Shown piece after piece: positions 1,405 to 20,370 of a stretch of DNA of 22,304 nucleotides. The notes beneath the pieces are model-generated. The model was given only the letters and a program-made list of their open reading frames with translations. It was not told the origin of the DNA and made no database searches. Source of the stretch: Candidatus Margulisiibacteriota bacterium (GTDB lineage: Bacteria > Margulisbacteria > WOR-1 > O2-12-FULL-45-9); contig JBDRHP010000061.1 in NCBI GenBank assembly GCA_043816785.1, forward strand, positions 1 through 22,304, written 5' to 3'. The position numbers and the translations under genes are program-made. The stretch's first letter is position 1. The number at the start of each line of letters is the position of its first letter.

Positions 1405-4400
1405 CTATTTATGATAGTCCTGCAGCGCCTTAACCGTAAACCCCTTTTTCTTGACCGACTCCAGGCCATTAACAGTGGCGCGGGTGCCGGATAAAGTGGT
1501 CACGATCGGAATCATGTGCATTATAGCACCGGAGCGTATCTTAGTCTCATCCACCTTGGTCTTTTTATCTCCCGGTGTATTGATCAAAAGCTTGACCTCG
1601 CCGTTCTTGACCAGATCCAGGACATCCGGCCGGCCTTCGCCCAATTTGGCCACTGCCTCAACCTCCAGACCGTTCTTACGCAAAACTTCTGCAGTACCTG
1701 AGGTGGAGACGATCTGATAACCCAAAGCCGCAAGGCGCTTGGCTAACCCAACGATCTTGCGTTTGTCACGGTCATTGACCGAAACAAAAACCTTTCCCTC
1801 CAGGGGGATCTTCTGGCCGGCCGCGATCTGGGCCTTCATGTAGGCAACGCCAAAATCCGCATCGATTCCCATGACCTCACCCGTCGATTTCATCTCCGGC
1901 CCGAGCACCGGGTCAACCCCTGGAAAACGATTAAAAGGAAAGACTGCTTCTTTAACTGAAAAGTGCTCTGGAACAATTTCTTTCTCAACGCCTAATTCCT
2001 TAAATGATCTTCCAAGCATTACTTTTGTCGCAATGGTCGCCCAGGGCACACCAGTTGCTTTGCTGACATAAGGAGCAGTACGCGAAGCACGAGGGTTAAC
2101 TTCCAGCACATACAGTTTGCTGTCCTTGACCGCATATTGGATATTCATCAACCCCTTGACCTTCAGCTCCTTGGCCAGCGCCTGGGTCGCTTTTCTGATC
2201 TCTTCCAAAATGGTTTTAGAGAGAGAAAAGGTTGGGATAACGCAGGCCGAATCTCCGGAATGGATACCGGCTTCCTCAATATGCTCCATGATCCCACAAA
2301 TAACAGTTTTCTTGCCGTCAGAAACCGCATCAACGTCAATTTCGATCGCGTCATCCAGAAACTTATCTACCAGGATCGGCTTTTCCGGGGAAGCGATGAC
2401 CGCTTTCTGCATGTATTCTTCCAGGTCGCCTTCATCATAGACTATGACCATGGCCCGGCCGCCCAAAACATAAGAAGGACGCACCACTGCCGGATAACCA
2501 ATGCGTTTAGCGATCTTCTTGGCTTCGGCAAAAGAAGTGGCAGTCCCGTTAGCCGGCTGGGTCAGTTTAAGTTTCTTAAGCAGGGACTTAAAACGCTTGC
2601 GATCTTCCGCCCGGTCAATTGAATCGACCGAGGTCCCCAAGATCGGCACTCCAGCATCCTCCAGCTGGCGAGCCAGGTTAAGCGGTGTTTGGCCGCCAAA
2701 TTGAACAATAACGCCTTCTGGTTTTTCCTTCTCAACGATATGCAGAACATCTTCGCGGGTCAGTGGCTCAAAGTATAAACGATCAGAAGTGTCAAAATCA
2801 GTTGAAACTGTTTCTGGGTTAGAGTTAACCATTATCGATTCGTAACCTTCTTCTTTGATGGCGAACGAAGCGTGACAGCAGCAATAATCAAATTCAATGC
2901 CCTGCCCAATCCGGTTGGGCCCGCCACCCAGGACCATGATCTTTTTCTTGTCCGTGGCCCGGCATTCATCTTGGGAATTATCATAAGTCGAGTAGAAATA
3001 TGGTTTCATCGGGTCAAATTCACCTCCACAGGTATCCACCAGTTTATAAACCGGGGTGATTCCTTTTTTCTTGCGATGATCGTAGACCGCGACCTCGTCG
3101 CTGCCGATGAGATAGGCGATCTGGATATCGGAAAACCCGAGGCCCTTAGCATCCTTCAGCAATTTATCCGGTATATCAGCCAGCTTATGCTTGGCGACCT
3201 TCTCTTCCATTTCAAAGATCTCGCGCATCTGATTAATGAACCACGGGTCGATATTAGAAAGATCATGGATCTCTTGATCGCTCATGCCATTCTTGATCGC
3301 GTAACGCAGCCAGAAGATGCGGTCGGCGTTGGGATAGACCAGCTTCTGCTTGACCAGTTCTGCATCACCTGAAAGCTCTGGCGGAACATCCCGGCCATCC
3401 GCTCCTAATCCATATCGACGATATTCAAGTGAACGGATACCTTTTTGCAAAGATTCTTTATAATTGCGGCCAATTGACATGGCTTCACCCACAGCCTTCA
3501 TGGAAGTGGACAGGATCGGGTCAGCCTCCGGAAATTTTTCAAAAGTAAAACGACAAACCTTGAACACACAATAGTCAACTGTCGGCTCAAAGAACGTGTA
3601 GGTCTTGCCGGTCACCTGGTTGACGATCTCATCCAGCGACAGACCAATGGCTAATTTAGCCGCGACCCGGGCAATAGGAAAACCGGTCGCTTTTGAAGCT
3701 AAGGCTGAAGAGCGTGAGACACGCGGATTAATTTCAATAATTACTACTTTGCCATCATCAGGATTAACCGCAAATTGAATATTGGTGCCGCCGCCATTGA
3801 TCCCCACCGCCCGGATGATCTTCTTACACCAGTTCTCCAGGTCAACAAACTCTTCAGTGGTTAAAGTCTGGGCCGGAGCAACAACGATCGAATCCCCGGT
3901 ATGCACACCCATTGGATCGATATTTTCCATTGAGGTCACGATAACTACGTTATCCTTGCAGTCACGGATCACCTCAAACTCGACTTCTTTCCAGCCCAAC
4001 ACTGATTGCTCGACTAAAACTTGTTTGAGAGGGGAAACATCCAGCGCCAGCTCCAGTCCAGCCTTCAATTCATCAATATTATATGCGCAGGAGCCGCCCG
4101 CCCCGCCCATGGTAAAAGCAGGCCGCAAGATTATCGGAAAACCGATCTTTTCTCCCAGCACTAAGCCTTCTTCAACGCTAGTCGCAATACCTGACTCAGG
4201 CACAGCCATGCCAATGCTAGCCATGGTCTCTTTGAACTTTTTTCTGTCCTCGGCCCGCTCGATCGCCTTGGCATCTGCGCCAATGATCTCTACCCCATAT
4301 TTTTGCAAGATGCCTGCCTTGGATAAGAAAAAGCCCATATTAAGACCAGTCTGCCCGCCCAAGGTAGGCAGCAAAGCATCCGGTCTTTCCTTGGCAATTA

Positions 4401-4629
4401 TCTTTTCGATAAATTCCGGATCCAGGGGTTCAATATAAGTATGATCAGCCATGCCTGGATCGGTCATAATGGTGGCTGGATTGGAATTGATCAGGACTGT
4501 TTCGTAGCCTTCCTCTCTCAAAGCTTTACAAGCCTGTGACCCGGAGTAGTCAAACTCACAGGCAGAACCAATAATGATCGGTCCGGAGCTGATGATCAGG
4601 ATCTTTTTAATGTCTGTTCGTTTTGGCAT
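1405..4629 (-). CDS. carB: Carbamoyl-phosphate synthase large subunit
   Basis: 1074 aa. MPKRTDIKKIL...ACEFDYSG; two ATP-grasp halves (GVHTGDS, EINPRVSRSSALASKATG; GPNRIGQGIEFDY, GIHSGDS, EVNPRASRT); C-terminal MGS-like domain. RBS GGAGGGG upstream of the ATG. Confidence 0.98.
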   Translation of the reverse strand: MPKRTDIKKILIISSGPIIIGSACEFDYSGSQACKALREEGYETVLINSNPATIMTDPGMADHTYIEPLDPEFIEKIIAKERPDALLPTLGGQTGLNMGFFLSKAGILQKYGVEIIGADAKAIERAEDRKKFKETMASIGMAVPESGIATSVEEGLVLGEKIGFPIILRPAFTMGGAGGSCAYNIDELKAGLELALDVSPLKQVLVEQSVLGWKEVEFEVIRDCKDNVVIVTSMENIDPMGVHTGDSIVVAPAQTLTTEEFVDLENWCKKIIRAVGINGGGTNIQFAVNPDDGKVVIIEINPRVSRSSALASKATGFPIARVAAKLAIGLSLDEIVNQVTGKTYTFFEPTVDYCVFKVCRFTFEKFPEADPILSTSMKAVGEAMSIGRNYKESLQKGIRSLEYRRYGLGADGRDVPPELSGDAELVKQKLVYPNADRIFWLRYAIKNGMSDQEIHDLSNIDPWFINQMREIFEMEEKVAKHKLADIPDKLLKDAKGLGFSDIQIAYLIGSDEVAVYDHRKKKGITPVYKLVDTCGGEFDPMKPYFYSTYDNSQDECRATDKKKIMVLGGGPNRIGQGIEFDYCCCHASFAIKEEGYESIMVNSNPETVSTDFDTSDRLYFEPLTREDVLHIVEKEKPEGVIVQFGGQTPLNLARQLEDAGVPILGTSVDSIDRAEDRKRFKSLLKKLKLTQPANGTATSFAEAKKIAKRIGYPAVVRPSYVLGGRAMVIVYDEGDLEEYMQKAVIASPEKPILVDKFLDDAIEIDVDAVSDGKKTVICGIMEHIEEAGIHSGDSACVIPTFSLSKTILEEIRKATQALAKELKVKGLMNIQYAVKDSKLYVLEVNPRASRTAPYVSKATGVPWATIATKVMLGRSFKELGVEKEIVPEHFSVKEAVFPFNRFPGVDPVLGPEMKSTGEVMGIDADFGVAYMKAQIAAGQKIPLEGKVFVSVNDRDKRKIVGLAKRLAALGYQIVSTSGTAEVLRKNGLEVEAVAKLGEGRPDVLDLVKNGEVKLLINTPGDKKTKVDETKIRSGAIMHMIPIVTTLSGTRATVNGLESVKKKGFTVKALQDYHK

Positions 4630-4640
4630 GATTTCCCCTC

Positions 4641-5657
4641 CTATACCTTTTTATATCCCGGATCAAGTTTGCCTCGTTCATCGATCGGAAAATATAACGC
4701 GGCAACACAGCTGCCGTCCTTGGATTGGATTTTTTCGATCGTCTTGTCATTGAGATTGACGTGAACAACCTTTACTCCGCTGGGAACGGCTGTGATCCCG
4801 TAGCTGTGGTTTTGCACTGAGATCTCGCCCCTGCCGGTCTTGGTGTCAACCACGGGGTGGTTGACACCGTGGTGTCCGACCTTCATGCGGTCAACCGTGC
4901 ACCCAAGGGCCATGGCCAGGACACAGGCACCGTTCTGGATACCGTAGATAGAAACCTTGCCAATCAGCTTTTTGATCTCTTCGACCAGACCGGTCAGCTT
5001 TCTGGGATCACCCGGCCCGCTGGAGATGACCACCTGTTCCGGCTTCTTTTCAAGTATTTTTTCAGCTGTAACATTATGAGGAACCACTTTAGCCCCGGCG
5101 AACTTGGACAGCGTACTATTATTAACCCCCAGGTTGATGATAACAGTAGTTGTTCCGGGTTTGGCCTTGGGGCCTTCCATGCCAGAGGTTGTTTCCGCTA
5201 CCAGATCCGGAAGCTTATAGCCTTTTGCTTTGTTTACAAGACTTTCCTTATTAAAATCTTCAGTGGAAACGATACCTCTCATTTCCCCGTTGTCGCGGAT
5301 ATGGATAGTCAAGGCGCGGGTATCGATGCCTTCGATACCAATGACCTTGTTCTTTTTCATAAAATCATCAAGAGAACCCTTGGCCTGCCAGTTGCTGTAA
5401 ACCTTGCTGTATTCCTTAACCACAAAAGCCGAAGCATGGGCTTTATCAGACTCATTGCTGCGGTCATTGATCCCGGCATTGCCAACATGAGGATAGCCTA
5501 TGGCAAGGATCTGCTTAGCATAAGCCGGATCAGTCATAATCTCCTGAAAACCAACTACCTGGGTGTTAAAAACAACTTCCCCGGCCACTTCTCCTTCTGC
5601 CCCAAAAGAAACCCCTTCAAACATCGTTCCGTCTTCCAACGCTAAAACTGCTTTCAT
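4641..5657 (-). CDS. carA: Carbamoyl-phosphate synthase small subunit homolog with degenerate glutaminase active site
   Basis: MKAVLALEDG, GEVVFNT, TDPAY, GIDTRALT, SSGPGDP, GHHGVNHPV, QNHSY. Start at ATG 5657 with RBS AGGGAGG (338 aa). The catalytic motifs GICLG and HPE read GIQNG and FPI. Confidence 0.93.
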   Translation of the reverse strand: MKAVLALEDGTMFEGVSFGAEGEVAGEVVFNTQVVGFQEIMTDPAYAKQILAIGYPHVGNAGINDRSNESDKAHASAFVVKEYSKVYSNWQAKGSLDDFMKKNKVIGIEGIDTRALTIHIRDNGEMRGIVSTEDFNKESLVNKAKGYKLPDLVAETTSGMEGPKAKPGTTTVIINLGVNNSTLSKFAGAKVVPHNVTAEKILEKKPEQVVISSGPGDPRKLTGLVEEIKKLIGKVSIYGIQNGACVLAMALGCTVDRMKVGHHGVNHPVVDTKTGRGEISVQNHSYGITAVPSGVKVVHVNLNDKTIEKIQSKDGSCVAALYFPIDERGKLDPGYKKV

Positions 5658-5678
5658 GTTCTTCCTCCCTATTTTGGC

Positions 5679-5698
5679 CCTGCCTGCCGGCAGGCAGG
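5679..5698. repeat. Perfect 20-bp GC-rich palindrome (REP-like) CCTGCCTGCCGGCAGGCAGG
   Basis: The sequence equals its own reverse complement; it lies between the leader terminator and the carA RBS. Confidence 0.8.
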
Positions 5699-5699
5699 C

Positions 5700-5728
5700 A
5701 AAAAAAAACGCCCCTTTCGGGCGTCTTT
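5700..5728 (-). terminator. Intrinsic terminator/attenuator in the carAB leader
   Basis: Minus strand AAAGACGCCC-GAAAG-GGGCG followed by a run of 9 T; lies between the promoter and the carA start. Confidence 0.85.
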
Positions 5729-5731
5729 GCC
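5720..5731 (-). promoter_or_regulatory. Candidate ANTAR-binding RNA hairpin overlapping the terminator 5' arm
   Basis: GGC-AAAGAC-GCC: 3-bp stem and hexaloop with A at position 1 and G at position 4; mutually exclusive with the terminator stem; ANTAR gene adjacent. Confidence 0.65.
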
Positions 5732-5744
5732 ATTTAACATATAA

Positions 5745-5773
5745 ATTATACCAAAAACTCAAGCCCTTGTCAA
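5745..5773 (-). promoter_or_regulatory. Consensus sigma70 promoter of carAB
   Basis: TTGACA (5773-5768), 17 bp spacer, TATAAT (5750-5745), with extended -10 TG. Confidence 0.9.
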
Positions 5774-5774
5774 A

Positions 5775-6197
5775 CTAAAGCTCATAAGCAGAAAGGATCG
5801 AGTGCGCGATATCGCGCATAGAGCGGCCGGAATCCATGCTCTGTTCCTGGAGTTTTCGGTAAGCCTCAGTAGGCAGAATATCGAACTGAGCGATTAAGAT
5901 TTCCTTAGCGCGTTCAATAATCCTGCGGTCATCCAAAGCCTTTTGCAATTCCCCAACCTTCTTGCGTAATTTCCAGTTTTCTCGACGTATCTGATCATTG
6001 CTTCGCTTATCAGTTAATTTATAAATAGTTGCCCGAGCCTTACCTTCTTTTTTGATCAGACCTTGTTTAATAAGAGGTGCTATGAGCTGATTGATCCTGG
6101 CACGGGTCAAAGCTAAAGACTGCTGAAGCTCTTTTGTGCAAAGACTCGGATGCTGGGCCAATAATTTTAGAATTTGTTCCTGACGACTGTTCAGCAT
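5775..6197 (-). CDS. Winged-helix HTH + coiled coil + ANTAR domain regulator
   Basis: N-terminal LNSRQEQILKLL...ELQQSLALTRARINQLIAPLIKQGLIKKEGKARATIYKL (wHTH). C-terminal LQKALDDRRIIERAKEILI...EAYRKLQEQSMDSGRSMRDIAHSIL (ANTAR signature). Confidence 0.88.
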   Translation of the reverse strand: MLNSRQEQILKLLAQHPSLCTKELQQSLALTRARINQLIAPLIKQGLIKKEGKARATIYKLTDKRSNDQIRRENWKLRKKVGELQKALDDRRIIERAKEILIAQFDILPTEAYRKLQEQSMDSGRSMRDIAHSILSAYEL

Positions 6198-6203
6198 GCG
6201 CCA

Positions 6204-6232
6204 ATTATATCAATTTATCCCGAGCTTGTCTA
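6204..6232 (-). promoter_or_regulatory. sigma70 promoter of the wHTH-ANTAR gene, probably giving a leaderless mRNA
   Basis: TAGACA-17 bp-TATAAT with extended -10 TG; only 6 nt between the -10 and ATG 6197; no SD. Confidence 0.75.
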
Positions 6233-6235
6233 GGG

Positions 6236-6257
6236 AATCGTCAAGAAATCGTCAAGA
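6236..6257. repeat. Perfect 11-bp tandem direct repeat (AATCGTCAAGA x2), candidate operator
   Basis: 6236-6246 and 6247-6257 are identical; 3 bp upstream of the -35 of the regulator gene. Confidence 0.7.
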
Positions 6258-6261
6258 AAGA

Positions 6262-6321
6262 TTATTTCGCTAAATCTTGCAATATCTTCTTTAACTCCTG
6301 CAGCCGGTCACCAAAAGCACC
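6262..6321 (-). repeat. Displaced duplicate of the last 60 bp of the UPF0182 gene (att-like scar)
   Basis: 52/60 nt identical to 8804-8863; both copies encode GAFGDRLQELKKILQDLAK*. Confidence 0.92.
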
Positions 6322-6332
6322 CAGTCATTTTT

Positions 6333-8792
6333 TTACTGAGAAACAGCATGCATCACTTCATCAACACCTATTTTTTCTCCGTAACTGATATGTATTTTAT
6401 TGTTTGAATCAATTACCAAAGAATTATAATATCCATTACCAGTGCTTTCTTCACCGCCTGGATCAACCGTCTGATACACCCAACTTCCAGATGTATTATT
6501 CATATATTTCAAAGAATTTTGATAACAATAACTTATATGAACTTTATTATTAGAGTCTACACCCAATGATGCATTAGCCTTATTTCCTGACGTATCAGCA
6601 AATCCCTGGGGTAATGCCTCAGTTATCCATCCTCCACTCATATTGGTTGCATATTTCCGAGAATTTGGTGAGCTTACCCCATAACTAATATGGGCCTTAT
6701 CATTAGAATCCAAAGACATTGAAACACCAATTGGAATAAGATTATTAAGATCATCTACTATTTCTTTCGGCCATGTTCTACCAACATTTTCAGTTGTGTA
6801 TTTTACTGCATGATTTGTTGTATCCCCATAACTAATATGCACTTCATCATTACTATCTAAAGCTATTGATGTGCCATATACATATACCGAATCAATTGTG
6901 GCTGTGCTCCAATTCCCCGAAGCGTTTCTTATGTATTTAAGTGAACGAGAAGAGTTGCTTTCATCTCCAGCGCAAGCAATATGTACTTTGCCGCTTGAAT
7001 CTACTGCAATAGAAAGATAGGATACCGGGGAGAGGTCAGGGAAAGTCCCCCCCTCTGTTACCCAGGCTCCAGAACTATTGGTTGCATATTTAAGAGCACG
7101 AGCAGTGTCAAGGTAACACACATGAGCATATCCATTTGAATCTACCGCTATCGATGGAGTAGATGCATTATTATAAGCATTTGAACTAATCGTTTCAGTA
7201 ACCCAACTACCAGACGCATTGGTTACATATTTTAGATCCTGATCAGATAAACCTTTATAGCACATGTGAACCTTGTTATTTGAGTCTACTGCGATTGCAG
7301 TTTGTGGTAAGTTTACTGAACCCACAGATTCTCTAACAAAGGGTACCCCCGCAGTTGTAAAACTCCACGTATAATCATTAGCTAAATCATTTCCAGACAA
7401 ATCTGCAATATCACCCTTATCAACTAAAACCGTATATGCCGTTCCCCCAGCTATTGGGTAATCATTGCTACGAGTTATAATATTATTATTAGAATTATAA
7501 GAAATGCTTCCACTGAACCACCCCTTATAAGCAGAAGATAGCTGAACCGAGGCCAAAGTTAACGGAGAATCATCTATCCCCTCACTAAAAGTTACGGTTA
7601 TATCCGTATCTTCAGACACTCCAGTTGCCCCACTTACAGGAGTTATAGAAGTTACCGTGGGTGGCGTTGTATCATCATGCGCTGCAGTTGCAAACGACCA
7701 ACTGTAGGGGCTTAACATACTATTCCCTACAGCATCTTTTACAGTCCTGTCCACGGCAACAGTATAGGCATGATTTCCATCAAGATCACTTAAAGGTTTA
7801 AATGTGGCAACAAATAAAGCGTCATTATAAACAACTGTTCCTAAAACATTGCTGGATCCGGAAACCACAATTGTATTAGTATTAATAGTAGAATCATCCA
7901 TTGCTTCCGAAAAACCTATTTTAATTTCTCTGTTTATATCAATCTCAGTTGCTCCACTAGAGGGGTAAGTTTTTACTACTGTCGGAGGGGTCGTATCTGC
8001 AGAACACGTTGTTGTAAACGTCCAACTATAGTTGCTTCCCATTTGATTTCCTACTACATCTGCTACGGTTGAAGCAACTGTTGCCACATAGGTTGTACAA
8101 AGATCTAAGTTAGAAGTTGGATCAAATTTTGCCGTTCTAGTGTTTTCGACATAGCTTACTGTTCCTGCAATCTGCGAGTTTGGCGATGATAAAATAAATG
8201 TAGAAGAACTGATCGTTGAGGTATCCATGTCCTCATCAAACGTTGCCGTCACATTTGTTCCTTGCGAAACACCGGTAGCACCATGAACTGGATATTCAGA
8301 TGATACATGGGGAGGCGCTGCATCTACTGTGCTAGATGTGGTAAACGACCACGTATAATCGCTTGCCATTTGATTCCCTGCTATATCCCTTACGGTGGAA
8401 GAAACTACTGCTGTATATGTAGTACTCAAAGCTAGATAGGATGTCGGGTTTATGGTAGCAATATAAGTAGTCGAGTCATAACTTACTGTTGCTGCAACTT
8501 GCCCTGATGAAGACGATAAAGTAAAAGAATTTGTGTCAATTGATGTTGGATCCAGATCTTCAGTAAAGGTTGCAATTACATTAATACCTATAGACACATC
8601 AGTTGCTCCACTAATAGGATAAACATCAGCAACTTGAGGAGGAGTTGTATCACCTCCTGGTACGACAACTTGCCCACATCCTCCACTTAAGTAAAAAGAA
8701 CCAAGACCTATTATCAGAATAAGTATGGCCCCAACACCAAGACTATAAACATGAGGCCTACGAAAGAAATTAAATATTTTTTCAATTAACAC
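6333..8792 (-). CDS. Secreted/membrane-anchored surface protein with 4 bacterial Ig-like (Big_5/SbsA-type) repeats and a C-terminal 7-repeat beta-propeller; possible lipoprotein
   Basis: GTG start with RBS AAGGAG. Hydrophobic N-terminus then LSGGCG. Four DxxPPxV...P..GAT.V...F.E..D...D..GN...Y.WSF(T/A)T repeats and seven (s)iavDSnnkvHisY repeats. Markedly AT-rich codons. Confidence 0.85.
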   Translation of the reverse strand: MLIEKIFNFFRRPHVYSLGVGAILILIIGLGSFYLSGGCGQVVVPGGDTTPPQVADVYPISGATDVSIGINVIATFTEDLDPTSIDTNSFTLSSSSGQVAATVSYDSTTYIATINPTSYLALSTTYTAVVSSTVRDIAGNQMASDYTWSFTTSSTVDAAPPHVSSEYPVHGATGVSQGTNVTATFDEDMDTSTISSSTFILSSPNSQIAGTVSYVENTRTAKFDPTSNLDLCTTYVATVASTVADVVGNQMGSNYSWTFTTTCSADTTPPTVVKTYPSSGATEIDINREIKIGFSEAMDDSTINTNTIVVSGSSNVLGTVVYNDALFVATFKPLSDLDGNHAYTVAVDRTVKDAVGNSMLSPYSWSFATAAHDDTTPPTVTSITPVSGATGVSEDTDITVTFSEGIDDSPLTLASVQLSSAYKGWFSGSISYNSNNNIITRSNDYPIAGGTAYTVLVDKGDIADLSGNDLANDYTWSFTTAGVPFVRESVGSVNLPQTAIAVDSNNKVHMCYKGLSDQDLKYVTNASGSWVTETISSNAYNNASTPSIAVDSNGYAHVCYLDTARALKYATNSSGAWVTEGGTFPDLSPVSYLSIAVDSSGKVHIACAGDESNSSRSLKYIRNASGNWSTATIDSVYVYGTSIALDSNDEVHISYGDTTNHAVKYTTENVGRTWPKEIVDDLNNLIPIGVSMSLDSNDKAHISYGVSSPNSRKYATNMSGGWITEALPQGFADTSGNKANASLGVDSNNKVHISYCYQNSLKYMNNTSGSWVYQTVDPGGEESTGNGYYNSLVIDSNNKIHISYGEKIGVDEVMHAVSQ

Positions 8793-11887: not shown

Positions 11888-13106
11888 GCTGACTATAATC
11901 CCAAGGCATGCCCGGTTTTCCCACGTCCTCAGAAATAAAGATTTTCTATTTCTCTGGCTTGACCAGCTCATGTCCCAATTAGCTGACAGGTTTCTGCTTT
12001 ACGTCTTGCTCGTCATTGCCTACGGCGCGACCAGGAGCAACCTGGGCGCCAGCCTGCCGCTGCTGGCCTTTGGCGGCTCCGCGGTCGTTTTCGGCCCGAG
12101 CGCCGGGGTCTTCGTTGATCGCTGGAACAAAAAGCTGGTCATGGTTATTGCCAATCTCCTGCGCGGCGCTTTGATCCTGCTCTTGATCCCGTTCATCGGC
12201 CACCACCTGGGCGAGATCTTCCTGCTCAGTTTTATAATATTTTCTGTATCGCAATTTTTTGCCCCTGCGGAAACAGCCAGTATCCCTACGTTGGTGGAAA
12301 AAAGGGATCTAATAGCAGCTAACTCCCTGTTCATGATGACCCTGATGGTTGCCTCGATCATCGGCATCGGAGCGGCAGCCCCATTGACCAATTTTTTTGG
12401 CATCAGAACGGTCCTGATCATTTCTGCCTCTTTGCATTTGACATCAACCTTGGCCACATTCATGATCTCTCTGAAGCACAAAAAGAAAAGTACCAGCCCC
12501 AGCTTAATGAACCTGTTCAAGGAATTAATCATGGGCCTAGAATACATCCGGCGCAAATCCATTATTCGCTTTGCTTTGGCCAAGCTGTTCTTTGCCACTG
12601 CAGTCCTGGCAACCATCTGCTTGTTAGCGGTTAGTTTTTCCGAAAAGATCTTAGGCATAGGAGCCAAGAACTTTGGCTACCTGATCCTTGCCGCTGGCAC
12701 CGGCATGGCCATAGGCGCCTTGTTCGTGGGCCGTTTTGGTCATCATTTCAAGAAGGACCGCCTGGCCCATCTAGGTTTTTTGCTGGCCGGCTGTTCCCTG
12801 CTCATCCTGGCCAATGCGCAGGACCTGTGGATCGTGCTGGCCACGATCTTTTTCCTTGGCGCAGGCAACGCCTTTATTGTTTCGCCGCTGCAGACGATAC
12901 TGCATGAAAAAGTCCCCCGATCGATCCGCGGCCGGGTCTTTGGCGTTCAAAATATGTTCATTAACTCAGCTTTTACTTTTCCTGTCGTAATCTTCGGCGA
13001 GCTGGCAGATCTGATCGGTTTACGCACCATCATCCTTGTGCTGGGCGCTTCTGTCCTGTTCAGCGGAGCGTTGGACACACTTGTATCTTTTTTCCAGCGG
13101 GATTAA
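11868..13106 (+). CDS. MFS transporter (DHA3/MFS_3-like, 12 TM)
   Basis: FLFLWLDQLMSQLAD, motif A (AGVFVDRWNKK), QFFAPA, GRVFG. Start uncertain (first ATG at 11868, overlapping DUF2892). Stop overlaps the convergent gene at TTAA 13103-13106. Confidence 0.9.
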   Translation: MLKPVNKLTIIPRHARFSHVLRNKDFLFLWLDQLMSQLADRFLLYVLLVIAYGATRSNLGASLPLLAFGGSAVVFGPSAGVFVDRWNKKLVMVIANLLRGALILLLIPFIGHHLGEIFLLSFIIFSVSQFFAPAETASIPTLVEKRDLIAANSLFMMTLMVASIIGIGAAAPLTNFFGIRTVLIISASLHLTSTLATFMISLKHKKKSTSPSLMNLFKELIMGLEYIRRKSIIRFALAKLFFATAVLATICLLAVSFSEKILGIGAKNFGYLILAAGTGMAIGALFVGRFGHHFKKDRLAHLGFLLAGCSLLILANAQDLWIVLATIFFLGAGNAFIVSPLQTILHEKVPRSIRGRVFGVQNMFINSAFTFPVVIFGELADLIGLRTIILVLGASVLFSGALDTLVSFFQRD

Positions 13107-14605
13107 ACAATCAGGTAATTAAAGAAGCATAATAAGATCACCAGGGCGATGATCATCCAAAGCAAATGAGTATTTAGGTTCCTGGCATGCAGTTGCCTCA
13201 TTTTGTTACAGCTGGCCACCAGGACATCAACCGACCGGTTACTAAGGCGGTCCAGGCTGAGAATATCCCACAGAGCTATGTTCTGGAGTCGGTCTGACCG
13301 GAGAACAAGCCAATAAATGCCTGAACCCAGTAAAATGACCAGCCCTGCGTCAAAAAATAACCAGAAGCTCCATAAGTTCTTGTCCAACACCAACCCGACC
13401 GCTGAAGCAACATAGCCCAGGACCGGCTGAGCCATAAGTCCGACCACCAGACAACCAGCGGCCAAAAGCAACATTGGCAGGACCATCAGCCAGGGAACTT
13501 CTTTGGTTTGCTCAAGCTTGGCCGGCAGCTCTCCCAGAAACGCGCCGCAGAACAACTTAAGCATCAAAGCGAACGTGCCGGCAGAGGTCAGGACAAGAAC
13601 GACCTTCAAGGCCGGGGCTGCCGAAGCGGCCGCGGACAAAAGAGCCTTGCTGGCAAAACCGTTAAAAGGCGGGATCCCGGTAATGGCCAAAGCGCCAAAA
13701 GCAAAAGCTAGCGTGGTCAAAGGCATGCGCTGCCCTAAGCCGCCCAGTTTGTCCAGATCACGTTCACGCGTAGCAAAAATGATCGCGCCAGCACAGAGAA
13801 AGAGCAGCATTTTGAACATGGCATGGTTAAGCATATGGAACAAGCCGCCGCTCACCCCTAACCCAGTCGCCAGGCCAAAACCCAGCACAACATAACCCAT
13901 TTGGCTGATGCTGCTATAAGCCAGCAATTTTTTTATATTGGTCTGCTTTAAGGCCAGGACCACGCCAAAGAGCATGGAAATAGCACCAGCCCAGACCAAG
14001 GTTGAGTTGATCAGACCCAGGACGAACATCAGACGCAGCACACCATAAGCCCCGATCTTTATGGCAATGCCGGATAAGAGAGCTGAGATCGGCGACGGCG
14101 CGACCGGATGAGCCTCCGGCAGCCAGATATGGAACGGCACTGTCCCCACCTCGAACAAAAAACCGATCAGGAACAAACCAAAGATCAGTCCCAGCTTGGC
14201 CTGAGGCAAAGTAGAAGCAACATTGGCAATAGCGGCCAGATCAAATGTGCCGGTCAGGTTATACAGCATTAACGAGGCCAGCAACAGGAACAGTCCGCCC
14301 AAAAACATCATTAAGATATACTTAAAACCAGCGGGAAAGGACTCTTTCTTGGTGTTGTCAATGATCAGGAAATATATGCCGACTGTCATGATCTCCAGGA
14401 ACACATAAAGAGTTAAAAGGTCCCTGGCCAGCACTGATCCGACCATGCCAATTAAAGCAAGCAAAAGAACAAAATAATAGCGAAAGAAGTTCCGGCGCAC
14501 GTAAGCCAGTGAATAAACAAAGACCATGGGAAATAGACAGGCGATCATGATCAACATGAATTTGCTTAGGCCATCGATCGGCCACATTGGCACAGTAAAG
14601 ATCAT
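13103..14605 (-). CDS. Second antiporter-like subunit (MrpD/MrpA/NuoL-M family) of the Mrp-type complex
   Basis: YVFLEIMT, PFHIWLPEAHPVAPSPISALLSG, KKLLAYSSISQMGY, HMLNHAMFK, GIPPFNGFASK. Start at ATG 14605 by ATGA overlap with the upstream stop. C-terminal amphipathic segment plus a final TM helix. Confidence 0.9.
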   Translation of the reverse strand: MIFTVPMWPIDGLSKFMLIMIACLFPMVFVYSLAYVRRNFFRYYFVLLLALIGMVGSVLARDLLTLYVFLEIMTVGIYFLIIDNTKKESFPAGFKYILMMFLGGLFLLLASLMLYNLTGTFDLAAIANVASTLPQAKLGLIFGLFLIGFLFEVGTVPFHIWLPEAHPVAPSPISALLSGIAIKIGAYGVLRLMFVLGLINSTLVWAGAISMLFGVVLALKQTNIKKLLAYSSISQMGYVVLGFGLATGLGVSGGLFHMLNHAMFKMLLFLCAGAIIFATRERDLDKLGGLGQRMPLTTLAFAFGALAITGIPPFNGFASKALLSAAASAAPALKVVLVLTSAGTFALMLKLFCGAFLGELPAKLEQTKEVPWLMVLPMLLLAAGCLVVGLMAQPVLGYVASAVGLVLDKNLWSFWLFFDAGLVILLGSGIYWLVLRSDRLQNIALWDILSLDRLSNRSVDVLVASCNKMRQLHARNLNTHLLWMIIALVILLCFFNYLIV

Positions 14606-16068
14606 GGCGCCAGCACCTTGACCGCGGGCTCGATCAGGCTCAGGACCACACCAGGAAATAATCCGACCAAAAGACACAAAGCGGCAAAAACATAGGTTGA
14701 AAAATGCTCAAAAGGCCCGACTGGTATCGGCACAAAATCAGGTTTTTGCTTAAAATCTTCTTGAGAAAAAAATGTCTGGATGACCCGGAAGAAATAAGCC
14801 GCGGTCAAAAGTATGCCAAAAAAAACAAAGGCCAGCAGAAAGTAGTTCTGCTTCTGCAGCACGGCCTCAATAATGAACAATTTACTGGCAAACCCATTGA
14901 ACGGCGGGATGCCGATCACGGCCAGCGCCAAAGCGCAAAAAGCAATAGTCATGCCAGGCATTTTCCGCCAGACACCCTTCATCTGATCGATCCGCCAGAA
15001 ACCTGTTTGGGAAATAATAATACCAGCACAGAAAAATAACCCTGTCTTGATCAGCGCATGGTTGAAGATATGGAACAATCCGCCCTGAAAGCCAATACTT
15101 GAACCCAAACCAATGGCGATCAGGATAAAGCCGATCTGATTGATGCTTGAAAAAGCCAGCAGCTTTTTGAGCTCATCCTGGGCCAGGGCCAGACAAGCAC
15201 CGACAACCAGGGTAATAACACCTAAATACGTAAGGATACTGCTCATGCCATCCATAAAAATGGTCGAACCAAAAAATAAAAAGAAGACCCGCAGTATGGC
15301 GTACAAGCCGACTTTGAGGATCAAACCTGAAAGCAAACCGCTGACCGGGGTCGGCGCCTGGGAATGTGTTTCAGGGATCCAGGTATGCATGGGAAAGATG
15401 CCGCACTTAACGCCAAAAGCGGTCAGCATCAGGGCAAAGATCAAATAGACGACATGAGGATTAGCTTGATAGATGCCGGGGATCTGCGCGGCTATCTGGT
15501 CCATGTTCAAACTACCCGTCAGACCATAAAGCAAGGCAATGGCCAGCAAAAAAAGCACCCAGGCTGATTCGGTCATGATCAGGTATTTAAAACTTGCCTT
15601 GATCGCCCGGTCCTTGTGTTTATAAGTCACCAAAACGTAAGAAGCCACGGCCAGGACCTCAAAGAAAACGTACATATTGAATATATCACGGGTCAGTACG
15701 ATACCCAAAATACCTGCCAGAGCGACCAGTAGCAGCGAATAATATCTTCTGGCATATAAATAGGTGCCCAATGAATAAACAACGATCAATAGACCGATGC
15801 CCAGGACAAGACTGGCAAAGAAGAAGCTTAAACCATCCACCTGCAGACTGATGCCAACTGGCGGCGGCCAGCCGCCCAGATCATATTTAATAACTTCACC
15901 GGAAAAAATCTGAGGAACAAGCATCAGCAGAAAAAAAAGCGACGAGCCCAGACCGGTAACAGCCACAAGTTCCGCACCTCTTCTTAAAGGCGTGTATTTG
16001 GTCAAGTGGGTCAAGAAAGCTGCCAGCAATGGCAGCACAATTATAAGGATTGCCGCATGCCCGATCAT
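14602..16068 (-). CDS. mrpD: Mrp-type Na+/H+ antiporter subunit D (MbhH-like)
   Basis: GGWPPPVGISLQVDGLS, DIFNMYVFFEV, KCGIFPMHTWIP, KKLLAFSSINQIG, NHALIK, PPFNGFASK. Confidence 0.92.
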   Translation of the reverse strand: MIGHAAILIIVLPLLAAFLTHLTKYTPLRRGAELVAVTGLGSSLFFLLMLVPQIFSGEVIKYDLGGWPPPVGISLQVDGLSFFFASLVLGIGLLIVVYSLGTYLYARRYYSLLLVALAGILGIVLTRDIFNMYVFFEVLAVASYVLVTYKHKDRAIKASFKYLIMTESAWVLFLLAIALLYGLTGSLNMDQIAAQIPGIYQANPHVVYLIFALMLTAFGVKCGIFPMHTWIPETHSQAPTPVSGLLSGLILKVGLYAILRVFFLFFGSTIFMDGMSSILTYLGVITLVVGACLALAQDELKKLLAFSSINQIGFILIAIGLGSSIGFQGGLFHIFNHALIKTGLFFCAGIIISQTGFWRIDQMKGVWRKMPGMTIAFCALALAVIGIPPFNGFASKLFIIEAVLQKQNYFLLAFVFFGILLTAAYFFRVIQTFFSQEDFKQKPDFVPIPVGPFEHFSTYVFAALCLLVGLFPGVVLSLIEPAVKVLAP

Positions 16069-16397
16069 TTATCCTCCAGGATCTTGTCAACATTTAGGGT
16101 TTTATACTTGTCATATATCCTTATGGCCAAGGCCAGCGCCAAAGCGGTAATACCAAGCCCTATTACCAAACTCGTCAGCATGACAGCCTGCGGCAGCGGA
16201 TCAACGATCAGTTCTTCTGCGCCCTCTAATATAGCCGCGCGGCCGCCTGCAATATAGCCGATACTGATAAAAAGAAGAATGACACCTGAATTCATCAGGT
16301 AAAGCGACATGATCATCTTGATCATATTGCGCTTGCTCAATATCCCGTAAAGACCGACCAGGACAACAATAACGCCCAAGGATATCCCGTTTATCAT
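16065..16397 (-). CDS. mrpC: Mrp antiporter subunit C (NuoK/MbhG-like)
   Basis: GLYGILSKRNMIKMI, DPLPQAVMLTSLVIG; ATGA overlaps on both sides. Confidence 0.93.
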   Translation of the reverse strand: MINGISLGVIVVLVGLYGILSKRNMIKMIMSLYLMNSGVILLFISIGYIAGGRAAILEGAEELIVDPLPQAVMLTSLVIGLGITALALALAIRIYDKYKTLNVDKILEDK

Positions 16398-16816
16398 AAT
16401 TTATGCCTCACTGTGCGGTAAAAGATGACTGCGATCCCGGTGCCGACCATAAAACCAATGGTCAGGTTAAGCAATAGGATCAGGCCGGTGCTCGGCACAG
16501 TGCCAATCTCGCCCCGCGGCAGGAAATCTGACAGAAAAGAATAGCCCATGAACATGCCGGCAAAACCAAGCAGGATAAAAATGATCATGCCGATGTTCTT
16601 GGTCAAGGAAAGCAGATTTTCGTGAAATCTTTTTTCAGCATTGCGCACGCCGTCGACCAGACCGAGCAGGATAATGGCTGAGCCAATAATAACACCACCC
16701 TGGAAGCCGCCGCCGGGCGACAAATGGCCGTGCGAGATCAGATAACAGCCGTAAAGCAGGATAAAGGGGAAGAGCTTTCTGGTCAAGGTCCTGACTATAG
16801 TGGATCTTCTATCCAT
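16394..16816 (-). CDS. mrpB: Mrp antiporter subunit B (MnhB/MbhF-like)
   Basis: HGHLSPGGGFQGG motif; start placed at ATG 16816 (MDRRSTIV) after RBS AGGAG. Confidence 0.9.
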   Translation of the reverse strand: MDRRSTIVRTLTRKLFPFILLYGCYLISHGHLSPGGGFQGGVIIGSAIILLGLVDGVRNAEKRFHENLLSLTKNIGMIIFILLGFAGMFMGYSFLSDFLPRGEIGTVPSTGLILLLNLTIGFMVGTGIAVIFYRTVRHKL

Positions 16817-17081
16817 CGGGCTCTCCTTTTTTGAGCTTGCGCAGCAGCATGTATACGCCCAGGGCTGAAGCAAAAAAGACCGTGGCCTCTCCCAATGTGT
16901 CATAAACACGGTAATTCAGATAAATCGCCGTGACCAGGTTAAGAGCGCCGGTCTCAGCAACGCCGTTAGCCACATAATATTCTGATATTCCAGAACGAGG
17001 GCGGCCGTAATCCAGCTGGACCGCGTTCAGGATAAAATATCCCAGTACGATCAAAACGACCACTATCAGGATGCGTTTCAT
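16809..17081 (-). CDS. MbhE-like subunit (stand-alone MrpA/MrpB-related segment)
   Basis: ETGALNLVTAIYLNYRVYDTLGEATV matches the NxVTAIxxxYRxxDTLGE signature. Confidence 0.85.
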   Translation of the reverse strand: MKRILIVVVLIVLGYFILNAVQLDYGRPRSGISEYYVANGVAETGALNLVTAIYLNYRVYDTLGEATVFFASALGVYMLLRKLKKGEPDG

Positions 17082-17308
17082 TCCTCATGCCTCCTGGTCT
17101 TGCTGATCGCCACAACAAAAAGGACCGTGGAAACACCCGCGCCGATCGCAGCTTCCGCGATCGCAATATCCAAAGCATGCAATCTAAAGAATAATAAGGT
17201 CAGCACCAGACTGAAAGCAGCTAAAACAATAGCCGCATTGAGCAGATCTTTCATTTCAATGGCCACTATCGCGGTCAGGATCAATACTAGATAGAAGATC
17301 TCGTTCAT
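17078..17308 (-). CDS. MbhD-like / DUF4040 subunit
   Basis: DLLNAAI...ALDIAIAEAAIGAG (APDVAxTEAxVGAG-type motif), 3 TM helices. Confidence 0.85.
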   Translation of the reverse strand: MNEIFYLVLILTAIVAIEMKDLLNAAIVLAAFSLVLTLLFFRLHALDIAIAEAAIGAGVSTVLFVVAISKTRRHEE

Positions 17309-17610
17309 TGCTTTTTGTCCTTCTGCTGCCAGGGTTTGATGCCGGATTCCAAGGCACCCCGCGCTATGACATGGGAAGCGACCGGGCTGGTGATCAAAAT
17401 AAATAAGGATATCAGGGCCAGCCTCAAGGTCAGGGCAGAAAGACCGGAATAGATCATCAAACCAATAAAGATCGACAAGCCCCCTGCTGTCCCACCCTTG
17501 CCTGCCGGATGGATCCTGGTATAAAGGTCAGGGAACCTGATCAAGCCTATTACGCCAAAAGTCAGGAAGAACAAGCCAAGAATAAAAAATCCATAAGCTA
17601 ACCAGATCAT
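17305..17610 (-). CDS. mrpG: Mrp antiporter subunit G (MbhC-like)
   Basis: GLIRFPDLYTRIH, TSPVASHVIARGA. Confidence 0.92.
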   Translation of the reverse strand: MIWLAYGFFILGLFFLTFGVIGLIRFPDLYTRIHPAGKGGTAGGLSIFIGLMIYSGLSALTLRLALISLFILITSPVASHVIARGALESGIKPWQQKDKKQ

Positions 17611-17870
17611 TTATGCAGCTCCCTCCCGGTCAGATATTTTGATATAGCAATTACGGAAACGTAGCCAAGGATAGCGTAAACCAATGCCACGTCAAAATAG
17701 ACATGGCGTTCAAACTCAACCGCCAGGGTAGCGATTATTACAGTGATATTGAGCACGAGCAGGTTTAAGCCGATCAAACGGTCAAACGGGGTTGGTCCAA
17801 TAAATACCCGCATCAGACAGACCAGCGCGGTCAGTGAAAGAAAAAAGACCATGGCTGAGAGCGGATTCAA
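17607..17870 (-). CDS. mrpF: Mrp antiporter subunit F (MbhB-like)
   Basis: RVFIGPTPFDRLIGL, YFDVALVYAILG; TTG start overlapping the mrpE stop, RBS GGAGGA. Confidence 0.9.
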   Translation of the reverse strand: MNPLSAMVFFLSLTALVCLMRVFIGPTPFDRLIGLNLLVLNITVIIATLAVEFERHVYFDVALVYAILGYVSVIAISKYLTGRELHK

Positions 17871-18379
17871 TAGAATATCCTCCCTAATTGCGCCTCAAAA
17901 TTGCCCTTGATCTGCTTGGCCGCCTGGTTAGAATCGCTGGTATCCATGACTAGCCAGTGTACGAACAGTTCATCATCCTTCAGATCGATCGCGACTGTGC
18001 CGGGGGTCAAGGTGATCGAATTCGCCAGAAGCGCTCGGCCCAATTTAGAACCCAGCTTGGTCTTGATCTTGATGATGCCCGGATTGATCTTCATAGTAAT
18101 GACGCGGTAAACAACATTGAAGCTGCCCAGATATATTTCCCAAAGCAATATCAGCAGGTAGAAAATAAAGAGTTCAAACCTGGGCAGGATGCCCCGCTGG
18201 ACCTTTTCTTCCTTCTCAATGAACAAGTCATATGTAGCCAGAGCAATGACCAGGGAAAAAGCCCCGCCCAAAAGAAGCGAGAAGGGATCAAGGCTAAAAG
18301 TGAACAAATACCACAACAACATGAGAAAGATAAAGGTAATTATAATACTGTTAATTTTTTCCAGCTGTCCAATCTTCAT
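17867..18379 (-). CDS. mrpE: Mrp antiporter subunit E (MbhA-like)
   Basis: INPGII, LANSITLTPGT, LFVHWL; ATG at 18379. Confidence 0.93.
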   Translation of the reverse strand: MKIGQLEKINSIIITFIFLMLLWYLFTFSLDPFSLLLGGAFSLVIALATYDLFIEKEEKVQRGILPRFELFIFYLLILLWEIYLGSFNVVYRVITMKINPGIIKIKTKLGSKLGRALLANSITLTPGTVAIDLKDDELFVHWLVMDTSDSNQAAKQIKGNFEAQLGRIFY

Positions 18380-18386
18380 TGGCAAG

Positions 18387-18404: not shown

Positions 18405-19436
18405 TCAAGCGCAGAGATTGAGATCCCTGACTAAACCCACCAACCGGTTGTAACTCTGTCGGTCAAATTTAAAACAGATGCGCGGCTTCTCCAGCAATTC
18501 TTTGGCGCGAACCTCAGCTGGAATCGGCCCGCAAGGCTTGATCTCGCCAGACATAATATCAGCGTATTTTTGACTTAAGCGAGCCAGGTCAGCGGCCGCC
18601 ACTTTTTGATTTAAGCGAATAACAGTCAGGCCCCGCCCATATCTGATCGAATGATAAACCCGATAAAAATCCTTGATCTCCTTGACCGCTGCCTGGACCG
18701 AGCCAACTATTTTGAAAAGGCCCAGATCGGTCTGAGTGATAAAGCCGCCGGGCAAAAGTTCATTTTTAACAAACCTTAACCAGTTCTTCCAATAAGACAT
18801 ACCCGGCGCCTCGACCATGACCACCGGCCGCGGCGTGCACTTACCAGTCTGCATCAGCGTCAGCACTTCAAAACCTTCGTCATGTGTGCCAAAGCCGCCT
18901 GGGAACAAGACCGTGGCATCAGATTCTTTGATAAAAGCCAGCTTCCTGGTGTAGAAATATTTAACATTGATAAGTTTTTCTCCGCGGGCCACGTAAGGAT
19001 TGGCTTCCTTTTCCAGCGGCAGCTTGATCTTGACCGCAAAACCCTTTTTGCCCGCGCCTTTATTGCCAGCCTCCATCACCCCGCCGCCTCCGCCAGTAAT
19101 GACCAGGTAATCGTGCTTGACCATTTCGCTGGCAAACTCTTCAGCCATTTTGTACTCTAGGCTATTTTGCGGGCTGCGGTGCGAACCAAACATAACCACT
19201 TTTCGTTTGTCGCGGTACTTGGTAAATACACGAAAGATATGGCGCAGTTCTTTGAGCGTGTTGGTGACCAAATAAAGATCACGTTCATCCGCGCCGTCCA
19301 GGTGAAGTTTTATTACTGTGGTAAAAAGGTCATGAATGTATGCTCGGGTTTGGGGCAAGCTGTATGCTTTGGCCAGCTGGTCAATTTCCCGGTCAATATT
19401 TATATTACCAACTTTATACGACTTTTTGTCCTTCAT
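18405..19436 (-). CDS. LOG family (TIGR00730-like) nucleotide phosphoribohydrolase, long form
   Basis: MFGS, ITGGGGGVMEAGNKGA, YFYTRK, PGGFGTHDE, LMQTGK. Start at ATG 19436, overlapping the upstream gene by 23 nt. Confidence 0.9.
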   Translation of the reverse strand: MKDKKSYKVGNINIDREIDQLAKAYSLPQTRAYIHDLFTTVIKLHLDGADERDLYLVTNTLKELRHIFRVFTKYRDKRKVVMFGSHRSPQNSLEYKMAEEFASEMVKHDYLVITGGGGGVMEAGNKGAGKKGFAVKIKLPLEKEANPYVARGEKLINVKYFYTRKLAFIKESDATVLFPGGFGTHDEGFEVLTLMQTGKCTPRPVVMVEAPGMSYWKNWLRFVKNELLPGGFITQTDLGLFKIVGSVQAAVKEIKDFYRVYHSIRYGRGLTVIRLNQKVAAADLARLSQKYADIMSGEIKPCGPIPAEVRAKELLEKPRICFKFDRQSYNRLVGLVRDLNLCA

Positions 19437-20370
19437 TTGTCCAGATGATCGCATTCCTGACACTGAGCGGAGCCTTGGCCAGCCCCCTGGCCGCAATTGC
19501 CTTGACCAGCGGCGCAACTTGCATACTGTAACGCTTGGAAACATATTCCGGGTCCATGGCCGGCCAGCCCCAAAGGGAAGTATGGTATATACCGTCGACC
19601 ATGAAATAAGGCTTTTGTAAACTGGTCGGCCTCATGGTCTCCACCGGCGCGTGCCCTTCTGGATTTGAGACCAGATCAACAATAACTGAACCCGGCTTAA
19701 GCAATTTCAGCATTTTTCTAGTAACAAAAGGAGGTTCTTTTTTAACAACCCGCCTGAACGGCCGGTTGACCGCGTCAACCAGAATATCAGTGCCAGGCAA
19801 ATGTTTTGCCATCTCCACAAAATGCTTGCGGTTAAGGACCTCTATATGAGCCAACTTCCTGGCCGCTTCCTGGATCGCGCCGCGTGAAATGTTGCCGTAA
19901 CCCATTACCTTGACCACAGCCTTGCCCGGATCCTTGCCCCAGAGTTGGAAAGCGTAATCCATGCCAATGCGGCCGGAATCCATCACCGCCTCAACGATCC
20001 GTTTGCCCATAGGGTTCTTGAGAATATCCAGTGGAATGGCAATGACCTTTTGCTTGATCAGGTTCTTTTCCAGGATCGGCTCGCAGCGCAAGTGCATCAT
20101 ACTCATCAAGATGCTGTTGGGCCTCATTAATTTGATCTCTGAAGCGGTCGGCTCCTTGATCCGCACGACCAGGTCAGCCGCGTAGACCTGCTCCTTGGCC
20201 TTGATCTTACAACCGATCGCTTCATATTCAGCGTCAAGTATGCCAACACCAAGGCCTGCGCCTTTTTCCACCAGCACCTGATGGTTCTTGGCGATCGAGC
20301 GCAAATCTTCGGGCTGGAGAATGACCCTTTTTTCCAGCGGCCGGTTCTCAGCAGCTATGCCGATCTTCAT
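19414..20370 (-). CDS. AlaDH/PNT-family NAD(P)-dependent amino-acid oxidoreductase, N5-(carboxyethyl)ornithine-synthase-like, paralog 2
   Basis: MKIGI..E..EKRV..P, VLVEKGAG, IKEP, MHL, MGYGNISRGA, KPGSVIVDL; 318 aa. Confidence 0.8.
   Translation of the reverse strand: MKIGIAAENRPLEKRVILQPEDLRSIAKNHQVLVEKGAGLGVGILDAEYEAIGCKIKAKEQVYAADLVVRIKEPTASEIKLMRPNSILMSMMHLRCEPILEKNLIKQKVIAIPLDILKNPMGKRIVEAVMDSGRIGMDYAFQLWGKDPGKAVVKVMGYGNISRGAIQEAARKLAHIEVLNRKHFVEMAKHLPGTDILVDAVNRPFRRVVKKEPPFVTRKMLKLLKPGSVIVDLVSNPEGHAPVETMRPTSLQKPYFMVDGIYHTSLWGWPAMDPEYVSKRYSMQVAPLVKAIAARGLAKAPLSVRNAIIWTNEGQKVV

Follow-up and report, generated by a model that had tools for sequence, protein, structure and literature searches.

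The antiterminators EutV of Enterococcus faecalis (REC-coiled coil-ANTAR; PDB 6WSH/6WW6), NasR, AmiR and NasT have in common a target hairpin with a hexaloop carrying A1 and G4, a 3-bp stem that overlaps an intrinsic terminator, and nitrogen-related target genes. Two hairpins are required by EutV in vivo (PMC3369931; PMC8934654). The first, P1, is described as a recruitment hairpin, and single hairpins are reported to be bound equally well (PMC8934654, which also gives the EutV residues that contact RNA), while the P2 element is as defined in PMC3369931. GnfR of Geobacter sulfurreducens, a REC-ANTAR protein, binds a short conserved GGCAANGGCGCC-type site overlapping a terminator, is activated by the kinase GnfK and controls nitrogen-fixation genes (PMC2995071). 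The DNA analysed here (the window) is a stretch of 22,304 nt that encodes a related protein in which a DNA-binding domain stands in place of the REC, NIT, GAF or PAS input. This fusion shares with EutV, NasR, AmiR and NasT the coil, the ANTAR domain, the RNA-contact residues and the features of the target named above, but it faces one hairpin, with no room for P1, and its target is a CPS operon; from GnfR it differs in the kinase activation and in the nitrogen-fixation targets of that protein. The fusion is a real, lineage-restricted and sensor-less new version of ANTAR antitermination. As judged from sequence, it would work like EutV or GnfR but without an input domain and a second hairpin, and with the probable addition of an autorepression module of the type found with Fic proteins. 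The explanation as a whole, a one-gene regulator with two outputs that represses its own promoter and antiterminates transcription into carA*-carB, is given a probability of about 0.6.

Architecture of the fusion protein

The sequence-only reading had proposed a winged helix-turn-helix (wHTH), a coiled coil and an ANTAR domain joined without a sensor, and both Pfam scores and the AlphaFold2 fold bear this out (Table 1). The ANTAR family PF03861 scores 67.3 bits against a cut-off of 27.3, and the N-terminal part passes the cut-offs of HTH_24 (residues 3-49, 31.3 bits, cut-off 21.9) and HTH_27 (residues 2-64, 24.1 bits, cut-off 22.2), while the MarR family model (23 against 24.6) and the ArsR/SmtB model NF033788 (32.5 against 55) stay below their curated thresholds. 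No sensor family occurs among the 21 Pfam families at E<=1 or in the NCBIfam scan, and the wHTH, coil and ANTAR parts take up all 140 residues. In the model (53 homologues, mean pLDDT 91), the N-terminal domain folds as three helices (4-15, 21-28 and 32-44) and a beta-wing (strands 48-51 and 58-61), followed by a single long helix of 39 residues (67-105) and by helices 109-123 and 127-138. Foldseek matches it to the winged-helix regulators AdcR, ZitR and CadC and to the ANTAR proteins Rv1626, EutV and NasR, with no solved structure that spans both parts well (best TM-score about 0.45).

Conserved residues are found in each part. In the recognition helix and wing, R32, R34, G52, R55 and T57 are invariant (n=53 sequences). 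Within the coil, I70, N74, L77, V81, L84 and L88 fall in what appears to be a heptad register, and a RENW patch is conserved. The EutV residues R142, K143, K147, K149, Y164 and M172 correspond to R91, R92, R96, K98, Y113 and M121, of which R91, Y113 and M121 are invariant across the 53 fusion sequences, whereas the positions of EutV G150, E160, R168 and R175 are occupied by E, P, Q and G.

Table 1. Features of the fusion locus and of the carA*-carB operon, in window coordinates
Position	Strand	Feature	Basis
1405..4629	-	carB, full-length CPS large subunit, 1074 aa	
4641..5657	-	carA*, CPS small subunit, nucleophile Cys replaced by Gln, His-Pro-Glu lost	
5679..5698	.	20-bp palindromic repeat in the carA* 5' region, 28 genomic copies, REP-like	
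5700..5728	-	intrinsic terminator; 5' arm overlaps the loop and 3' strand of the hairpin	
5720..5731	-	single ANTAR hairpin: hexaloop (A1, G4) on a stem of 3 bp, 13 nt past the -10 box	
5745..5773	-	sigma-70-type consensus promoter of carA*-carB (12/12, extended -10), 1 nt past the stop codon	
5775..6197	-	wHTH-coiled coil-ANTAR gene, 140 aa	ORF, Pfam, AlphaFold2
5793..5951	-	ANTAR domain, residues 83-135	Pfam, EutV-equivalent residues
5934..5999	-	zipper-like coil, residues 67-88	alignment, AlphaFold2
6012..6197	-	winged helix-turn-helix, residues 1-62	Pfam, AlphaFold2
6204..6232	-	own sigma-70-type promoter, 11/12 matches, 17-nt spacer, extended -10	
6236..6255	-	TTGACGAT present twice as a direct repeat with an 11-bp period; putative wHTH operator	

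Distribution

Of 130 candidates from a protein search, 114 proved to be relatives, almost all of them full length and 53-81% identical, and those that carry names belong to the Margulisbacteria/Saganbacteria, as do 12 of the 13 full-length matches in a scan of species genomes. Within the phylum, 16 of 146 genomes have a full-length fusion, and all 16 belong to the class of the window. An ANTAR protein is present in 32 of the 65 genomes of that class: 16 have the fusion as their sole ANTAR protein, in another 16 every ANTAR protein is longer (the one scanned is a GAF-ANTAR) and none has both. The GAF-ANTARs of Margulisbacteria and Omnitrophota resemble the fusion in lying beside nitrogen genes and in having some one-hairpin leaders, but they carry a GAF sensor, usually face two hairpins and share no genome with it (0/16). 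In a quick-method ANTAR tree, the fusion does not group with the Omnitrophota GAF-ANTARs, although these give the best BLAST scores, and no donor of its ANTAR half is singled out.

Among the best 150 matches in 1.84 billion representatives, four are the fusion family itself (E<1e-29), 21 others were scanned and prove to be REC-, GAF- and NAD-synthase-GAF-ANTAR proteins, ANTAR alone, Fic and multi-HTH proteins, and the remaining 125 were judged by matched range only; the search for an HTH joined to ANTAR thus returned the fusion family and no second, independent one. The NAD synthase-GAF-ANTAR proteins (P0123, P0139) are a fusion in their own right. No description of the wHTH-ANTAR protein or of ANTAR control of carAB was found in the literature searched, and the 17 and 149 Pfam architectures of PMC3369931 and PMC12591593 sit in figures and databases that may hide an unremarked HTH+ANTAR entry. 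The architecture had been called unusual from the sequence, and it is indeed confined to one class and, within that literature, not found in print.

A carbamoyl-phosphate synthetase operon with a dead glutaminase

All 16 fusion copies stand directly before a glutaminase-dead carA (carA*). The CPS small subunit needs Cys269 and His353 to hydrolyse glutamine (PMC6245113). In 24/24 aligned CarA* copies the catalytic Cys is replaced by Gln and His-Pro-Glu is lost, whereas both are intact in 17/17 active paralogues, and the replaced site is itself conserved, reading GIQNG in 24/24. The motifs at Ser47 and Gln273 (E. coli), which we take to be glutamine-binding positions in active CarA, are changed in most or all copies. 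The carA*-carB product would have to use free ammonia, a reaction that takes high concentrations with E. coli CPS (PMC6245113). The locus suggests that a bacterial CPS can retain a glutaminase subunit that no longer works as one, set against the view in the same source that glutamine is the physiological donor of bacterial CPSases.

The carB of the window is the only full-length copy found in the source genome, which is 87% complete. A second, active carA lies there in an amtB-PII-glnA-gltBD cluster, and the carB behind it is half-length (545 aa). This half length recurs in 7/7 resolved fusion genomes and two more, and also in some non-fusion genomes. The half-length product is the N-terminal half (538-555 aa; G000:C57:14753-18028 and L177-L196). 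Several non-fusion genomes have a separate CarB C-terminal half, 81-84% identical to the CarB of the window, and at G102:C46:62465-64037 the carB behind carA* is in pieces with stops.

In the GAF-ANTAR genomes G085 and G088, an ANTAR hairpin and a terminator precede a carB that has no carA next to it, so that control of an ammonia-using CPS by ANTAR proteins would reach beyond the fusion. These leaders are L290 (G085:C44) and L291 (G088:C45), the latter with two hairpins. No hairpin was found in six of eight carB leaders without a nearby carA from other GAF-ANTAR or ANTAR-less genomes, or in four further carB leaders.

The carA* leader

Including metagenome loci, 40 fusion loci were examined and 34 remained distinct after six duplicates were dropped, 33 of them complete. 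Every complete locus has a promoter, one 12-nt ANTAR hairpin and an overlapping terminator; the promoter begins at the fusion stop codon, the hairpin lies 8-23 nt past the -10 box, and no separate terminator for the fusion gene was found. All 99 stem pairs are Watson-Crick or G-U, with a compensatory change from G-C to A-U in nine loci, and A1 and G4 of the hexaloop are invariant. The hairpin matches the definition of the EutV P2 element and is nearly the same as the GnfR site as given in PMC2995071. The terminator (-11.5 to -19.3 kcal/mol) is more stable than the hairpin by itself (-1.7 to -4.2 kcal/mol), by about 10 kcal/mol. The palindrome at 5679-5698 is not a conserved part of the switch.

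A loose promoter-and-hairpin pattern gave matches at background level, and among 50 inspected loci the stem and terminator occur together only in fusion leaders. With a hairpin-and-terminator pattern, control matches were about as many as real ones, so that only position was used; one extra match in a fusion genome falls in coding sequence. A second hairpin target was not found in the source genome, and Rfam gave four matches on 5600-6400, all far under gathering scores.

Orthologues of carA* (64-84% identity) occur in 17 genomes, 16 with the fusion next door. The exception, G124 (90% complete), has a different gene upstream and no ANTAR of any kind, and in this one genome the carA* leader shows neither hairpin nor terminator. 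This bears on the proposal, raised speculatively in the sequence-only reading, that the dead CarA serves as a sensor. In its full form, CarA* or CarA*-CarB would be a pseudo-enzyme that sequesters the antiterminator and so feeds back on its own operon, in the manner of AmiC-AmiR or NasS-NasT; AmiC is described as sequestering AmiR in PMC12591593. The near-constant adjacency of the two genes and the conservation of the substituted active site would fit such a role. However, G124 retains CarA* with the same substitutions and no regulator, the glutamine-binding motifs are altered in most or all copies, and a structural role beside CarB accounts for retention. A predicted complex of the fusion dimer with CarA* scored 0.00, which carries no weight either way. 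The sensor role is possible, but we regard it as quite improbable.

Putative operator and probable origin of the winged helix

The unit TTGACGAT occurs twice at an 11-bp period at the fusion's own promoter in 34/34 loci. The repeats usually straddle the -35 box and spacer, with the start codon a few bases past the -10 box; in the window locus, a short insertion shifts both copies to just upstream of the -35 box, which is overlapped by a third, degenerate copy. As the ATG follows this promoter by 6 nt, the fusion mRNA is predicted to be leaderless. A second small repeat, in four copies, lies within the same promoter at about 6218-6235.

The closest relatives of the fusion helix are the C-terminal domains of the phylum's Fic/DOC proteins (41-57% identity; 51% for the Fic protein of the source genome). 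As with the fusion, the Fic-wHTH genes have a leaderless promoter with the same repeats (by eye, 13/13 and 5/5 printed), although here the helix is C-terminal to an enzyme domain and there is no RNA output. The source genome holds two such direct repeats only, one at the fusion and one at its Fic-wHTH gene. Across 65 genomes, the exact repeat pattern gave 32 matches, against seven with a reversed control: 14 before the fusion, eight before Fic-type starts, four before a third wHTH family and six elsewhere. The third family, wHTH-HATPase-STAS, has a variant of the repeat; L277, L278, L282 and L286 encode such proteins (about 345 aa, STAS of the DUF4325 type), and related 11-bp direct repeats lie where these genes start. 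On a matrix built from the repeat, true sites score 20-37 and 68 background promoters all fall below 0.

As the helix goes with a repeat at its own promoter in three families, autorepression is the simplest reading, and repression of the fusion gene at the direct repeats is likely. PhoB dimers likewise bind 11-bp direct repeats through winged helices, but this is an analogy only, the PhoB/OmpR fold being unrelated and without antitermination. Since the repeat also precedes Fic genes whose wHTH is about 50% identical, the helix and its operator have the look of a single autorepression module acquired from elsewhere, and on these comparisons the Fic-wHTH family is the probable source of both at once. 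A regulator would then have been constructed by grafting a self-repression module, a helix and its site, onto an RNA-binding output. In a short wHTH tree, the fusion helices form one group among the Fic-type helices, with no donor resolved, and a Fic-wHTH gene is seen in only 6/16 fusion genomes. That of the source genome (G000:C39:10075-11091; L168) has a promoter with three repeat copies, and its cross-talk with the fusion's operator is possible.

The winged helix could instead be a passenger that serves dimerisation, stability or non-specific nucleic-acid binding, the repeat being mere promoter shape. The first repeat unit does resemble a -35 box, and Z-alpha domains are among the weak fold matches. 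However, both full units are conserved in 34/34 loci, including the CGAT part that belongs to no promoter element, the repeat accompanies this kind of helix across three unrelated families of proteins, and the background promoters score uniformly below zero; a passenger role is thus very hard to credit.

One hairpin or two

A second hairpin within 30 nt was found in only 2/33 fusion loci, neither case conserved, as against 58/70 non-fusion ANTAR loci (those with a canonical hairpin, of 109 examined). The in vivo need of EutV for two hairpins makes antitermination at one hairpin a prediction here, and the fusion, with a 140-aa protein, a 12-nt hairpin and a 20-bp operator, is a minimal natural test of the two-hairpin rule, one that asks whether a single hairpin suffices and whether DNA binding helps. 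The scarcity of the second hairpin first suggested that the winged helix replaces P1. In this alternative, the dimer bound at the operator, or at a weak site in the carA promoter, would loop over some 500 bp and bring its ANTAR domains up to the single hairpin on its emergence from RNA polymerase, so that DNA looping instead of a recruitment hairpin delivers them. If so, one bound dimer would both silence its own gene and license an ammonia-only CPS with a pseudo-glutaminase subunit. Besides the contrast in hairpin number and the description of P1 as a recruitment hairpin (PMC8934654), the alternative can draw on an operator-to-hairpin distance of 479-534 bp, mostly 496-506, and on a faint likeness of the carA promoter to the repeat (12/29 have TGA at +12, against 2/68 background promoters, though related loci are not independent). 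However, the fixed distance follows from a fixed gene length, and the carA promoter scores -40 to +6 on the repeat matrix, with no operator-grade site near it.

A further argument against it comes from an Omnitrophota-type order, in which 15/36 leaders with hairpin and terminator lack P1, several of them with the hairpin 6-22 nt past the -10 box. Nine of ten such genomes checked have only ANTARs of 232-246 aa, and those scanned (3/3) are GAF-ANTARs. If these leaders work as they look, no DNA-binding domain is needed at a single hairpin, and delivery by a DNA tether, in either version, is unlikely. The sequence-only reading had the protein bind promoter DNA and be loaded onto the nascent leader. 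Its two proposed binding activities are supported, in that the binding residues are retained in the winged helix and in the ANTAR domain alike, and a conserved, cognate-looking site goes with either one; the operator, though, lies about 500 bp upstream at the fusion's own promoter, and the loading step is weakened by the carA promoter scores and by the single-hairpin leaders that go with GAF-ANTARs. The Omnitrophota-type leaders L306-L340 (the order of G147) precede what we take to be carA, pyrG, purF, purL, hisF, nadE, glutamate synthase and gdhA, gene names read off N-terminal sequences, which would make the genes glutamine amidotransferase and nitrogen genes, and are possibly an undescribed GAF-ANTAR nitrogen regulon.

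Proposed mechanism and signal

In the favoured model, repression and antitermination would be separate jobs of one protein, its dose set by DNA binding and read-through set by RNA binding. The coil would make a parallel dimer with no need of an input domain. Two winged helices on the 11-bp repeats would repress the gene and so set the protein level, while the ANTAR domains would grip the one hexaloop, which appears in the RNA no more than about 20 nt after carA* transcription begins. Hairpin binding would then block the overlapping terminator and allow RNA polymerase to enter carA*-carB. Antitermination at a single hairpin into an ammonia-using carA*-carB is the step we consider very likely.

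Action in cis offers a different account, in which the leaderless fusion mRNA ends at the same terminator and the nascent protein binds its own 3' hairpin, with no external signal; the operator would then control a read-through transcript into carA*-carB. It agrees with the side-by-side placement of gene, promoter, hairpin and terminator in every complete locus, with the lack of a separate terminator for the gene, and with the failure to find a second target in the source genome. Yet a near-consensus internal promoter is kept in 33/33 loci, so that most leader RNA should start after the fusion gene, and cis action is accordingly improbable.

For the two-output regulator, nitrogen status may be the signal, reaching the protein in trans by way of a partner such as PII or glutamine synthetase, or of a small ligand bound at the RENW patch, a guess as apt to be wrong as right. 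We lean slightly towards a switch that turns on when ammonium is plentiful rather than scarce. PII and AmtB are present in 58 and 59 of the 65 genomes of the class, a near-universality that singles out no partner. TnrA and GlnR of Bacillus also lack a sensor domain and have nitrogen read through GS and PII, but their folds are unrelated and they do not antiterminate, so that the likeness is one of analogy. NasT is reported to bind c-di-GMP.

Other genes of the window and related loci

In G090, amtB and PII genes lie about 1.5 kb upstream of the fusion on the same strand (G090:C9:110985-112492). In the window, 6333-8792 encodes a protein of 819 aa that has four Big_5 domains and, at its C-terminus, a repeat region; the gene is placed between a UPF0182 gene and the fusion; in close relatives, the UPF0182 gene directly adjoins the fusion. 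The genes at 13103-18385 presumably form an Mrp/Mnh-type multisubunit antiporter or the membrane arm of a hydrogenase, which their ORF sequences resemble. Two tandem alanine-dehydrogenase/PNT-like genes occupy 19414-21302 and are followed by a LOG/SLOG-family gene (18405-19433).
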